A stretch of DNA of 64,000 nt from Dictyostelium discoideum (lineage: Eukaryota), in NCBI GenBank assembly GCA_000004695.1, contig CM000150.2, positions 4,800,001 through 4,864,000 on the forward strand. Reading direction: 5' to 3'. The first letter of the stretch is position 1, and each line of letters begins with the position of its first letter. Below, one piece after another: positions 145 to 21,704 of this stretch. The position numbers were made by a program, and so were the translations under genes. The notes under the pieces are model-generated. The model saw only the letters and a list, made by a program, of their open reading frames with translations. It made no database searches and was not told the DNA's origin.

Positions 145-1801
145 ATGAAATTATTATCAACTTCATCAAAATGTTTTAAACAATCATTAAAGATAAACTA
201 TAGAAATTTTAGCTCATCAAATAAAATTTTTAAAAACTATACAAACAATAGTAAAAATTATAATAATAACAATAATAATTCTTTTAATGAAAATAACTAT
301 AAATTAATTTCAGCAATTGGAGTCTCAACAATAGTTGGTTTAGGATTTGTAAGTATTTATTAAAATTAATTTATATTATTTATTTAAATTTTAATTCTAT
401 TTTATTTTATTTTATTTTATTAATAATAAAATAAAATAAATAAAAAAAAAAAAGTTTTCAATTTTAAATTTAGAAGAAGAAAAAAAAAATATTATAATTG
501 AAAAGAATAAAATTGATAGAATACCAGATGAAGCAAAAAAAGAATTGGTATTAATATTTTCAGAAAGATTTGTTACACATCCATCAGATTTGGAAGCACA
601 TGGTAAAGATTTTAGTTATCATGAAAGAGCATCACCAGATGCAGTTATTTATCCACATAATCAAGAGGAAGTTAAAAAGTTGGTAGATATCGCAAGAAAG
701 TATAGGATACCATTGATTGCATGTGGTGCAATGACAAGTTTAGAAGGTCACACTCTTTCAAACTATGGCGGTATTTCAGTAGATTTTAGAAATATGTCTA
801 GAGTGTTACAAATTTATAAAGATGATTTCTACGTAACCGTCCAACCAGGTATTTCCTACGGTGATTTAAATGAGGAATTGAAAAAGATTGGATTCTTTTT
901 CCCAGTTGATCCAGGTCCTGGTGCAACTATTGGTGGTATGATTGGAACAAGTGCATCTGGTACTCATTGTGTTCACTATGGTACAATGAAGGATAACGTC
1001 CTCTCGATGAAAGTTGTGCTCCCAAATGGTGATATTGTAACCACAAGAAGCAAAGCAAAGAAGTCATCAGCAGGCTATGATCTCAACCATCTCTTCATTG
1101 GGTCTGAAGGCACATTGGGTATTGTTGTCGAAGCATCATTAAAAATCCAACCAATTCCAACCTGTTCACAAGTCTCATTGGTAACATTTGATAGTATCAC
1201 CTCTGCATGTGATGCAGTAATTAAAACCATGCAATCGGGTGTTCAAATTGGTAGAGTTGAATTATTGGATGATGTTATGATGAATGCAGTCAATTTAGCA
1301 AGTAATACAAACTATTCAGAGAAACCTACTTTAATTTTCGAATTCTCAGGTCCATCGCAAGGTATGGTTCAAGAACAAATTTCAAAAGTTAGTGAAATCA
1401 CCAGAGAATGTAATTCTTTAGATTTTAAATTCTCAAGTACAAATGAAGAAAAAGAAAATCTTTGGATGGCTAGAAAGGTTGCATTATGGAGTTCAAAAGT
1501 TTTAAGACCATCATCTGAAGTTTGGATCACTGATGCTTGTGTACCAATCTCAAAACTCTCTAAAATTATAGATGAAACAAAAGTTGATATCTCTAAAACC
1601 TCATTATTAGCACCATTGGTAGCTCATGCTGGTGATGGTAACTTTCATCTTTTCATTCTTTTTGATCCAAATAATCCAAAAGAATTTGAAGAAGCTAAAT
1701 TCATAAATGATAATTTAGTTAATAGAGCAATTGAATATAAAGGTACTTGTACAGGTGAACATGGTGTTTCTTTTGGTAAAATTGTATTGTATTATTTTTA
1801 T

Positions 1802-1837
<36 letters not shown>

Positions 1838-2063: not shown

Positions 2064-5588
<3,525 letters not shown>

Positions 5589-7905: not shown

Positions 7906-8203
7906 GTTTTTTGTTTTTTTTTTTTATTATAAAATTAAAATTTGTATGTATTTATATAAATCACCAATCCCATTAAATATTTATTTTTTTTTAATTTTTT
8001 TCTTTTTTTTAAAAAAATTTTCTCAATATATCTGACACAAACGCATTTAAATTTTTAATTTATTTTATTTTTATTTTTTTTTAATTTTTTTTTTTTTTTT
8101 TATTTTCTTTATTGGGGAATTTTTTTTTTCTTTTTTTAAAAATTTCTTTTTCCAATACCACATTCTCTTTAAATCAAATCAACCAAATCAAAAAAAAAAA
8201 ACA

Positions 8204-8242
<39 letters not shown>

Positions 8243-8483
8243 TTAATATAATTATTTTCTATTTATAGATTTTTTAAACATAAAATTTTTATATAAAATT
8301 AAACACAAACAAGAAAACAAAATTTTTGTATAATTACTTTTTTTTTTTTTTTTTTTTACACATAATTAATTAATTAATTAATCATCAACAACAATAACAA
8401 TAACAATAACAACAAAAAGCAAAAAACAAAAATATAAAAAAACAAATAAAATAATATAAATAAATAAATAAATAATATATAGA

Positions 8484-8769
8484 ATGGAGGCAATTACAAT
8501 TGAAATTAATCAAGAAGGTATTTTAGATTTTGTTAAAAAATCATCACTCTCAAAATGGAAGAATAGATATGTCAGATTAGTTGATGGTGGTATTTATATT
8601 TATAAAACTGATAAAGATGAAGACTTTAAATGTATAGATTTAGAATTTTCAGTTTTAGACTCCAACCCAAAAGAAGCAGGAAATAGACCAAACTCATTTT
8701 TAATTAGAGATTCACATAATAAAGCTTTTCTTTTCTCTGCAAATACATCACAAGGTAAATAATTTTTAA

Positions 8770-8818
<49 letters not shown>

Positions 8819-9557
8819 AAACATATTAATAATTTTTTTTATTTTTTTATTTTTTTTATAATTATTATTATTATTATTATTTATATTATTTAAAGAATAT
8901 AATAAATGGTTAGAAAATGTTAAAAGATCAACTGGTAAAAAGAATTCAGGATGTCCAACATTTGATTCAGCAGTTGCAAAGAGAGAAGGTAGAAATGATA
9001 TAATGTTTAGAGCAAAAAAGAATATTTCAGGTAAGATCGCTAGTTCAGGAGTTGGTAAGAGTGGTTTAAAGAAATTGATTCCAGAAGAGGGTCGTGAATT
9101 GATTGGATCAGTTAAAAAGATCATTAAGAGAGTCTCAAATGAAGAGAAAGCAAATGAAATGGAGAAGAATATCCTAAAGATTTTAATCAAAGTGTTTTTC
9201 TACATTGATTCTAAAGCAATTCAAATTGGTGATTTGGCAAAGGTTGATAGAGCTTTACGTGACGGTTTCAATCATTTAGATCGTGCTTTCAGATACTATG
9301 GTGTAAAGAAAGCCGCTGATCTCGTTGTAATCTTGGAGAAGGCTTCTACTGCCTTGAAAGAAGCTGAACAAGAAACTGTAACCTTACTCACTCCTTTCTT
9401 TAGACCACACAATATTCAACTCATTCGTAATACTTTTGCATTTTTGGGTTCTTTAGACTTTTTCACTAAAGTTTGGGATGATTTGGAAATTGAAGATGAT
9501 TTATTCTTATTAATTAGTGCTCTTAACAAATATACTCAAATTGAATTGATTTATTAA
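8484..9557 (+). CDS. PH domain fused to a TNFAIP8/TIPE-like (DUF758) domain protein. Exons 8484..8754 and 8896..9557.
   Basis: N-terminal PH domain (LSKWKNRYVRLVDGGIYIYK...FLFSANTSQ then EYNKWLENV after splicing, with a conserved C-terminal Trp helix). Phase-1 intron GTAAAT...AAAG. The C-terminal 185 aa align with the TNFAIP8 helical lipid-binding fold (ILKILIKVFFY / FAFLGSLDFF against TNFAIP8 LIKTVIKLAILY / FLAALYNPF). Confidence 0.7.
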
Positions 9558-9746
9558 ATAAATAATAATTAATTAATTAATTAATTAATTAATTAATCAA
9601 TCATAAAAAATAAAAAAAATAAAAAAAATATTAATCAGTAATAATTATAATAATAATAATAGTCAATAATATAAAATTCAAAAATCATAAACATATATAT
9701 GAAAATAAAATTTAATAATACACCAATCACAATAGTTTTATAGTAA

Positions 9747-9819
<73 letters not shown>

Positions 9820-10030: not shown

Positions 10031-11239
10031 ATGGAACAACAACAACATGATGATAATATAATTATAGAAGAAACTAATAATTCAATAACATTTAATGTTT
10101 GTAATACAATAAAAAGTAAAGTTAAATATGAAGATTTTTCAATAGATTCAATAATGAATTATCAAGAAATAGCAGAAGAGTTAGATGAAGAGGGTAATGT
10201 AATTGGTGAACCAGTTGAACAAGCAAAAGAAAAAGTAATAATAAATTCAAGTTTAAATGAAAACTCTAAATTTATTGGTTGTAATTCATTTTTTCATTCT
10301 GCTATCAAAGCATTTTCAGAACACCATCATTTAAATATACGTCCTGATGATATTTGGATGGCAATTTTAAATAATTTTTCAACTTTTATTAATAAATATG
10401 CACAAGATTTGAGAGACAAGTTGGTAGACTTTAAAGAGGGAAAGAAATTATTAATGGTTGAAACTGACTATCCAATTTTAAAAGCACCTCATGATAAATT
10501 AACATTAGAAATTAGTAAAGAAATTGAAAAAAATATAAAAGATCCATCAATTCGTGATTGGATAATACCAAATTTTTCAACAACCACCCAAACTGATAAA
10601 GTTGTTTTCGCATCTGCATTAATGTCAACTGTAAAATCTTTTTTCGATTTTAAATGTTATACAAGATGTGGTTTACCAAGTGTTACTCTTTTTGGTACTG
10701 TTGATGATTGGTTAAATTTAAAAGAAAGAATTGAAAGATTGAAAGAATTTGATATTATAAAAAATAAAAACCAAGAGGAAGAAGAGGAGGGACAAGAGGT
10801 AACTAATAAACCAATTATGAGTGAATGGGTATCAATGCTTCATCCAATCATTGATGAATTCATTTTAACAGCATCAGGTAAACCAAATATTGAATGGTGG
10901 TCATTAATTGCTAAAGAAAATGCAATAAGTGGTGGGCCTATTATAAATGGATGGATTACAGTTTTTTCAATTTTTAATAAAAAAAGTGTTTGTATATTTG
11001 ATAATCAACAATATTGGTCCAATGGAAGGGAAAAAAGATTATTAAATCCTAATACTTGGTTGAGAATAGGTTATCATATGGCTTTAAATGGTTATCTTTC
11101 TTCTCCAATTCTTTTGGTTGAAGGTCCCAATCAATACAACTCAACTTTATTTGGTGGACATATGGCAATTAAAATTGATGAAAATTCTCCAACAACAATT
11201 TCCCCTTCACTTGATTGGTGTTTGGTTATTGATAAATAA
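10031..11239 (+). CDS. DUF4419-family protein (uncharacterised), single exon, 402 aa.
   Basis: Intact ORF. The motif HHHLNIRPDDIWMAILNNFSTFINKYAQDLRDKLVDFKEGKKLLMVE and the later CGLPSVTLFGTVDDW resemble the DUF4419 signature as I recall it. Confidence 0.55.
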   Translation: MEQQQHDDNIIIEETNNSITFNVCNTIKSKVKYEDFSIDSIMNYQEIAEELDEEGNVIGEPVEQAKEKVIINSSLNENSKFIGCNSFFHSAIKAFSEHHHLNIRPDDIWMAILNNFSTFINKYAQDLRDKLVDFKEGKKLLMVETDYPILKAPHDKLTLEISKEIEKNIKDPSIRDWIIPNFSTTTQTDKVVFASALMSTVKSFFDFKCYTRCGLPSVTLFGTVDDWLNLKERIERLKEFDIIKNKNQEEEEEGQEVTNKPIMSEWVSMLHPIIDEFILTASGKPNIEWWSLIAKENAISGGPIINGWITVFSIFNKKSVCIFDNQQYWSNGREKRLLNPNTWLRIGYHMALNGYLSSPILLVEGPNQYNSTLFGGHMAIKIDENSPTTISPSLDWCLVIDK

Positions 11240-11939: not shown

Positions 11940-18335
<6,396 letters not shown>

Positions 18336-19721: not shown

Positions 19722-20134
19722 ATGAGTTTTCTTAAAATTAATAAAATAGCATTAAAATCTTCAACAACTATTTTAAAATCTTCTTCACCTTTATCAGGCA
19801 AAACCAAATTTAATCATATTAATAGTCGTAGTAGTAGTAGAAGCAATGAAAATAATTATGAAAAAAGATATTATTCATCATTTAGTATGAAAGAAGATCC
19901 AGAACCATCAAAACCATTTGGTTTTAAACCATTAATTGCATTAGTATTGGTTGGTGGTATTAGTGCATATTTATACAAAGCTTGGGATAATCAAGATTTC
20001 ATGTTTTCTTCTAAGTTACCATACCAAAGAGAAGAAGTTGAAAAATTTAAAAAAATCATGAAAGAAATACATCAAGATTCACAAAGAGAAAATTTAAATA
20101 TTGAAAAAGAATCAAAAGAATCAAAAGAATCTGA

Positions 20135-20176
<42 letters not shown>

Positions 20177-21704
20177 TCAACAAGAAGAAGAAAAAGAAGA
20201 AGAAAAAGTAGGAGTAGAAAATACTACATTAGAAGATAATATTATAGAATCAATAAAAAATCATGAAGAAGAAATGAAAAATGAATTGGTATCATTAATT
20301 GAATCAGTTCAAGATAAATATGCACATTCAAATGATGATGAAATCAATGCAGATGAAAGAGAAATGGATTCAGAGACTGGTGTTAGTATTAGTGATGAGA
20401 TTTCAAAATTAATTGAAGAACATAAACAAAATGAAGAAGAGTCATTACCAGATTTACTTGATGTTAATTATGGTGTATTATCTATTATTCCAGAAGCTGT
20501 TAAATCTGCTGAAGAAACAGTTGAAAATGCATTAAAGAAATTCACTCATAGCAATGATGATGATGATGATACAACAACTACTTCAATCATTATTAATACA
20601 TCAGATGAATTAAAGAATCATAATATTAATATTGAAAATGGAAATGAAGAATCTTTAGTCGATTCATTAGATGTTAATTATAATGTATTATCAATTATTC
20701 CAGAGAAAGTTAAATCAGCTGAAGAAAAAGTTGAAAATGTATTAAAGAAATTTGAAGAACAATATTTGGAGAAAGTTGAAAAATTAATTTCTGAAAATAT
20801 GAAGTTAAAAGTTGATTTTGATAAACTTATCAATGGAAAAGATGATGAGTTAAAGAGAGTAGAGGAAGAGATTAGAGAAAAGTATAGATCATCATTAGAT
20901 GCAGCTATTGAAGAGTTGAATAAGGATTTGGATGAAAAGTTAAAGGATATGGATCAATTCATAAAGTCAAAGGTATTTGATAACCAAGCAGTGCTTCAAG
21001 AGACATTGGAAAAACAAAAATCAAATCTTATCAATATTTTCAAACAACAGGCTGAATCTATTAAACAATCTGAATTGGAGAAGAGGGCAATCACTCAATT
21101 GACTCAATGCATTGTGGATCTTCAAAAACTTTTACATGATAAATCAGCTATCGACGGTGCTAATGGTAAGGGATTGCTCGTTAGATCGTTCAAGAATTTG
21201 ACAGATCTTTCAAACTATGATCAGTTGATTAAGGAATTACTCTCGACTTTACCAGAAGGATTTGAAAAGAAGCCAGTCATTCCTCTCGATACATTGAATA
21301 ATCAATTCCAAGATATTGCAAAGAAATTGAGAAAGTCTCAATTAATCGATCCAAATGATAATTCTTTGCTTGGTAAAGCAGTCTCAGAGTTGGCTTCTTT
21401 ATTTATCATTCCAGAGAAAGGTATGGTTCAAGGTAATGATTATGATGCTATCTTGGCTCGTGCTGAAGATCACTTAAGAAAAAATAATCTCTCCTCTGCT
21501 ATCAAAGAAATGGAATCCATTCAACAACAATCCTCAAAATCATCAACAAACATCGATAATCATCACCTTTCAAAATTAACTTCCAATTGGATTAAACAAG
21601 CAAAAGAAAGAGATCAATTAGAAAATATTTCAAAATTATTAGAGTTAAAATTGGAATTAATTCATAAACAACAACAACAAATTAAAGAGGAACAACAAAA
21701 ATAA
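19722..21704 (+). CDS. MICOS subunit MIC60 / mitofilin, single exon, 660 aa.
   Basis: N-terminal presequence, then a TM segment (PLIALVLVGGISAYLY), a long coiled-coil region, and a C-terminal mitofilin-like domain (ILARAEDHLRKNNLSSAIKEMESI...WIKQAKERDQLEN). Confidence 0.65.

Follow-up and report, generated by a model that had tools for sequence, protein, structure and literature searches.

The authors of the work on Gip1 of Dictyostelium discoideum, the product of gipA (DDB_G0271086; PMC8369479), present this protein as the first solubilisation factor that acts on heterotrimeric G proteins (PMC6219514). [quoted passage not shown] According to the 2016 study, as it is cited in these two papers, gip1-null cells lose the cytosolic pool of G proteins and fail in chemotaxis at high, but not at low, concentrations of cAMP. 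The C-terminal region alone is reported there to be enough for G-protein binding and sequestration, while rescue of the developmental phenotype requires the PH domain, as does the movement of G proteins to the membrane that cAMP triggers. The PH-dependent release of G proteins is given in the same citing papers as independent of Ras, PIP3 and F-actin.

The structural study (PMC6219514) showed that residues 146-310 of Gip1 form helices alpha-0 to alpha-6, of which alpha-1 to alpha-6 make a cylinder round a hydrophobic cavity that is 22 Å deep and 10 Å wide and has a negatively charged entrance. In the recombinant, crystallised domain this cavity was occupied by a bacterial (E. coli) PE/PG phospholipid. 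The G-gamma subunit carries a geranylgeranyl group on Cys66, and G-gamma without its CAAX sequence keeps its pairing with G-beta while losing the binding to Gip1; geranylgeranyl pyrophosphate competes for the Gip1-G protein complex, farnesyl pyrophosphate does so slightly and myristic acid does not (PMC6219514). Gip1 function is abolished when the cavity is filled by tryptophan substitutions. Glu307 is also required in vivo, as are the Asp208 hydrogen bonds by which the C-terminal tail is held in place. No binding of Gip1 to RasG, Rac1A, Rap1 or other Ras proteins was seen by pull-down. Gip1 is mostly cytosolic; a cell contains about 157,000 molecules of it, compared with about 60,000 molecules of cytosolic G-beta-gamma (PMC6219514). 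Gating of the cavity by the PH domain is a published proposal, and in the Gip1 literature we found no citation of a structure for Gip1 in complex with a G protein. Others have shown, on a protein identical to the one encoded at the locus analysed here, that binding depends on the prenyl group, that the cavity is required, that G proteins are sequestered in the cytosol and that chemotaxis is defective at high cAMP.

This locus lies in a 64,000-nucleotide stretch of D. discoideum DNA, referred to here as the window, which has a G+C content of 23% and long homopolymer runs between genes and is dictyostelid-like in both respects. Positions 8484-9557 of the plus strand hold two exons and one intron, which give a spliced product of 310 amino acids. 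The features of the gene are as follows.

8484..8754, plus strand: gipA exon 1, 271 nt, with the ATG at 8484; codes for aa 1-90 and base 1 of codon 91.
8755..8895, plus strand: gipA intron, 141 nt, phase 1, with GT at 8755-8756 and AG at 8894-8895.
8896-9557, plus strand: gipA exon 2; coding resumes at 8896 and TAA terminates.
8896..8930, plus strand: start of exon 2 and end of the PH domain, the remainder of the PH C-terminal helix to aa 102 (end of the Pfam match; AlphaFold2 helix 89-102).
8931..9059, plus strand: linker, aa 103-145, containing FRAKKNISGK (aa 128-137); from Pfam, AlphaFold2 and the alignment.
9060..9554, plus strand: G-protein-binding TNFAIP8/TIPE-like domain, aa 146-310; from identity to 5Z1N/5Z39, Foldseek against 5Z39 and published biochemistry.
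9555..9557, plus strand: gipA stop codon, TAA.

An exact-sequence look-up matched the spliced product, at 310 of 310 residues, to XP_646779.1 / EAL72893.1 (DDB_G0271086) of D. discoideum AX4; the 90% cluster of this protein also holds members of 310 aa from D. citrinum and D. firmibasis. In the PDB, a sequence search found residues 146-310 to be 100% identical to 5Z1N_A / 5Z39_A, which are entered as "G-protein interacting protein 1" (E=1e-102). The residues discussed in the structure paper (Asp208, Arg212, Tyr303, Thr304, Glu307 and Leu308) occupy the same positions in the protein encoded in the window, all of them within the segment 9060..9554. Positions 8484-9557 are almost certainly gipA, encoding Gip1, the solubilisation factor for heterotrimeric G proteins, and there is no evidence against this identification. 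Earlier publications cover the gene and its PH-TIPE architecture, a crystal structure for the TIPE-like half, and the role in chemotaxis.

Both domains were detected with Pfam profiles. The PH profile (PF00169) matched aa 17-102 with 49.2 bits against a cut-off of 25.1 (E=8.6e-13), and the TNFAIP8 profile (PF05527) matched aa 123-306, over profile positions 3-180 of 181, with 137.2 bits against a cut-off of 22.5 (E=7.4e-40). Judged by these profile scores, the two matches are far above chance. An AlphaFold2 model, built on an alignment of 11 sequences and with a mean pLDDT of 75, predicted seven strands (aa 10-85) and a capping helix (aa 89-102), as in a PH sandwich, followed by a helical bundle at aa 145-305. 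The linker between them (aa 116-145) is predicted to be disordered, with a low-confidence pLDDT of <50, and with a pTM of 0.47 for the full-length model the arrangement of the two domains relative to each other is unusable. Foldseek searches of the PDB with this model matched the helical bundle to 5Z39 and 5Z1N (TM 0.94 and 0.93) and, at lower similarity, to human TIPE2 (3F4M; TM 0.74, 19% identity), while the N-terminal part matched many PH domains, among them those of PLEKHA7, TAPP1 and ArhGAP9 (TM ~0.8).

These data bear on an initial annotation of the locus, which was made from the sequence alone and had assigned a PH domain to exon 1 and a TIPE domain to exon 2. Both domains are real and occur in that order, and structure prediction of the two halves returned the expected PH sandwich followed by a TIPE-fold bundle. 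The contrary case, in which the C-terminal half would belong to another fold family, is contradicted by the PF05527 match and the similarity to 5Z39. The division by exons does not stand, however. Exon 1, which ends in ...ACAAG, carries most of the PH domain, including all of the predicted beta strands, but the C-terminal helix of this domain runs into exon 2. As this helix spans the splice site, the exon boundary is not a domain boundary.

With the gene identified as gipA, the published work and the features above combine into the following mechanism. The deep hydrophobic, TIPE-like cavity takes up the geranylgeranyl group that G-gamma carries on Cys66, and additional protein contacts near the C-terminal tail, where Glu307 is positioned by Asp208 and Arg212, make Gip1 select G proteins and not Ras, Rac or Rap. 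Sequestration by Gip1 maintains a cytosolic reserve of G-alpha2-beta-gamma. Action of cAMP on the receptor cAR1 then frees the G proteins to move to the plasma membrane, in a step for which the N-terminal PH domain is required, and this release from the reserve allows the range of chemotaxis to reach high chemoattractant concentrations. A relevance to chemotaxis in an amoeba had been suggested in the initial annotation and is borne out, as Gip1 acts in amoeboid chemotaxis (PMC6219514, PMC8369479).

It is also conceivable that Gip1 has a dual function, either as a GDI-like factor for other prenylated proteins in addition to G proteins or by accommodating both the myristoyl group of G-alpha and the geranylgeranyl group of G-gamma in its large cavity. 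The slight competition by farnesyl pyrophosphate is in keeping with such a broader cargo. However, the lack of competition by myristic acid argues against it, as does the absence of RasG, Rac1A, Rap1 and other Ras proteins from the pull-down (PMC6219514), and we consider a dual function unlikely.

A second alternative is that Gip1 is brought to membranes by its PH domain and uses its TIPE domain to extract and shuttle PIP2 or PIP3 in the manner of mammalian TIPE2, TIPE3 and TNFAIP8, phosphoinositide carriage having been reported for the mammalian TIPE proteins. Canonical phosphoinositide-binding PH domains have a basic motif, K-Xn-(K/R)-X-R, in the beta1-beta2 region. The D. discoideum PH domain has basic residues at K18, K26 and R28, and this pattern (K18...K26-x-R28) speaks for a phosphoinositide shuttle. 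The arginine of the motif is not conserved, however, orthologues having S, C, N, V or another residue in place of R28; K18, K19, K24 and K26 are kept in close homologues only. The shared fold also favours a shuttle (Foldseek; r.m.s.d. of 2.0-2.7 Å to the TIPE proteins, PMC6219514), and so does the PE/PG found in the crystal cavity (PMC6219514), which indicates that the Gip1 domain is able to hold two-tailed lipids. Binding of free lipid is physically possible, since the cavity can hold phospholipid. Against a shuttle, Gip1 is predominantly cytosolic, G-protein binding needs the prenyl group of G-gamma and is competed by geranylgeranyl pyrophosphate, and the negatively charged entrance of the cavity disfavours polyanionic head groups (PMC6219514). 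In addition, the PH-dependent step is independent of PIP3, Ras and F-actin (Kamimura 2016, as cited in PMC6219514). Loss of R28 in orthologues and the negative charge at the cavity entrance would agree with a cargo other than phosphoinositides, and no report of phosphoinositide binding or transfer by Gip1 was found in the Gip1 literature. We regard a PIP2/PIP3 shuttle as highly improbable and would give very little weight to the handling of phosphoinositides or free lipids as the main function of Gip1. Two proposals of the initial annotation are not supported. The cargo is the geranylgeranyl group of G-gamma instead of a phosphoinositide, as seen from the failure of CAAX-less G-gamma to bind and from the competition by geranylgeranyl pyrophosphate (PMC6219514). 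Targeting of the protein to membranes through its PH domain does not agree with a mostly cytosolic Gip1 (PMC6219514), whose PH domain acts in a cAMP-triggered, PIP3-independent release.

A word-indexed search detected proteins with both PH and PF05527 domains in Heterostelium, Cavenderia, Tieghemostelium and Acytostelium (64-80% identity), that is, in every major dictyostelid lineage. The same search returned four homologues of 35-37% identity from environmental contigs of ~1 kb, in which uninterrupted ORFs encode both domains. The G+C content of these contigs (44-48%) is not dictyostelid-like. An exhaustive search with HMMER, over 1.84 billion cluster representatives, produced 240 hits at E<=1e-3. 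When the best 150 of these 240 hits were sorted with PH and TIPE profiles derived from our own alignment, 75 had both domains, with the PH domain on the N-terminal side in every case, and 75 matched the TIPE profile only, the latter having a median length of 225 aa and including several clear fragments. Public proteins with the PH-TIPE architecture make up at least 75 clusters at 50% identity. The representatives with a named source come from four Amoebozoa (Ceratiomyxa fruticulosa, Physarum polycephalum, Mastigella eilhardi and Phalansterium solitarium), the unicellular holozoan Syssomonas multiformis and the nucleariid Lithocolla globosa; Pfam detected both domains in each of the six. Two variants of the architecture were observed. 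One (P0070, a eukprot TRINITY record) has an N-terminal dual-specificity phosphatase domain, giving DSPc-PH-TIPE in 471 aa, and the other (P0036, from a JGI metagenome) has two PH domains in 412 aa.

In the alignment of the dictyostelid proteins with the homologues of 35-37% identity, D208, R212, Y303, T304 and E307 are invariant, as are the C-terminal SA[LM]NKYTQIE and the linker sequence FRAKKNISGK. In the wider set of eleven aligned homologues, Asp208, Arg212 and Tyr303 are still invariant. Dictyostelia, Physarum, Ceratiomyxa, Mastigella and Lithocolla also share E307, which is absent from Phalansterium, Syssomonas and P0063. The FRAKKNISGK sequence (aa 128-137, within the segment aa 123-145 at 8991-9059) lies at the start of the PF05527 match and upstream of the crystallised region, 146-310. 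Its K131 and K132 are kept in the wider set of homologues, and no role for FRAKKNISGK in Gip1 was found described in the Gip1 literature.

The PH-TIPE architecture is thus widespread in Amorphea and not specific to dictyostelids. The TIPE domain of Syssomonas matches Gip1 with E=1.7e-13 and human TNFAIP8 with E=3.6e-4, and that of Physarum matches Gip1 with 3e-33 and TIPE3 with 2e-5; both are nearer to Gip1. It is possible, although we would put this forward only tentatively and with more doubt than conviction, that PH-TIPE is ancestral to Amorphea and that the animal TIPEs are derivatives that have lost the PH domain; the fold could then have served originally to sequester the prenyl anchors of G proteins and not to transfer phosphoinositides. 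The taxonomic distribution of PH-TIPE was not found stated in the literature. This taxonomic breadth is the only new element of our analysis and is a modest comparative observation.

The homologues also bear on the integrity of the gene model. With an exon 1 of 271 nt, the intron is in phase 1; it is 98% A+T and contains a long poly(A) run. The phase-1 junction proposed in the initial annotation (ANTSQ|EYNKWLENV) was reproduced exactly by splicing 8754 to 8896. The sequence across this junction aligns without gaps to homologues from uninterrupted short-contig ORFs and from transcriptome assemblies, and both gipA exons must therefore lie in one transcript. Assignment of the exons to separate transcripts, which the initial annotation had considered as a case against its fusion, does not agree with these two-domain ORFs or with the annotated protein, the exact match to which, at 310 of 310 residues, settles the gene model and the splice. 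An artefact in which the PH exon and the TIPE exon are two genes and the fusion is merely apparent has a single point in its favour, an ATG ORF at 9003-9557 inside exon 2, and can be dismissed with near certainty in view of the identity of the spliced product to the annotated 310-aa protein, the published numbering (146-310), which needs the full-length product, the use of purified full-length Gip1 and an anti-Gip1 antibody in the experiments (PMC6219514), the coverage of both domains by uninterrupted homologue ORFs and the same domain order in 75 of 75 two-domain homologues.

On the minus strand, an ORF at 8600-9190 (196 aa) lies antisense to gipA, from exon 1 through the A/T-only intron into the start of exon 2; it encodes low-complexity poly-F and poly-N and was taken to be a shadow ORF. 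Microsatellite runs of the (TAAT/TTAA)n type ending in ...AATCA flank gipA, one upstream at 8366-8384 (aattaattaattaattaatcatc) and one just past the stop codon at 9565-9603 (taattaattaattaattaattaattaattaatcaatcat). They are probably ordinary A/T-rich low-complexity sequence. Poly(A) tracts of ~40-55 nt were seen at 8777-8815 (in the gipA intron), 8190-8240 and 9762-9818 and are typical of dictyostelid non-coding DNA. The neighbouring genes with Pfam matches are the following.

545-1807, plus strand: FAD-linked oxidase (FAD_binding_4 and FAD-oxidase_C; Pfam).
2064-5135, minus strand: protein of 1023 aa with a partial match to a protein-kinase domain (Pfam).
10031-11239, plus strand: downstream neighbour, a single ORF of 402 aa with a full-length DUF4419 domain (PF14388, E=1.6e-92), a family of no known function.
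15417-18335, minus strand: PHD-finger protein (Pfam).
19722-21704, plus strand: mitofilin/MIC60 homologue (Pfam, E=4.8e-138).

The FAD oxidase, kinase-like, PHD-finger and mitofilin neighbours have no evident functional link to gipA. A 1,086-aa ORF at 11940-15200 on the minus strand had no Pfam match at E<=1e-3, and a tRNA scan of the window found none.

Gip1 explains how amoeboid chemotaxis can operate over a very wide range of concentrations, and this has already been published. Raw sequence has here led correctly back to a gene whose genetic characterisation dates from 2016 and whose structural characterisation dates from 2018.

In comparison with known systems, the gene in the window does not differ from Gip1/gipA of D. 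discoideum (5Z1N, 5Z39; Kamimura 2016, Miyagawa 2018), being gipA itself. The mammalian proteins TNFAIP8 and TIPE1-3 (5JXD, 3F4M, 4Q9V) share with Gip1 the helical cylinder and its central hydrophobic cavity, and both families act in directional cell migration. The differences lie in architecture, cargo and structural detail. The solved mammalian TNFAIP8/TIPE chains (154-198 residues) contain no PH domain, as the initial annotation had stated for metazoan TIPE proteins, whereas Gip1 has one. The reported cargo of the mammalian TIPE proteins is phosphoinositide, while that of Gip1 is a geranylgeranyl group attached to a protein. The C-terminal tail of Gip1 runs along helix alpha-3 whereas in mammalian TIPE proteins it points into the cavity, and the orientation of the alpha-0 helix differs between them (PMC6219514).

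In its activity Gip1 resembles RhoGDI, RabGDI, PDE-delta and UNC119, all of which use a hydrophobic pocket to hide a lipid anchor and thereby keep a peripheral membrane protein in the cytosol; the capture of cargo by Gip1 was likened to that by PDE-delta by its authors (PMC6219514). [quoted passage not shown] The cargo also differs, in that Gip1 binds a heterotrimeric G protein while the RhoGDI, RabGDI, PDE-delta and UNC119 group binds small GTPases. Finally, loss of Gip1 leads to more cargo on the plasma membrane, whereas knock-down of PDE-delta has the opposite effect (PMC6219514).
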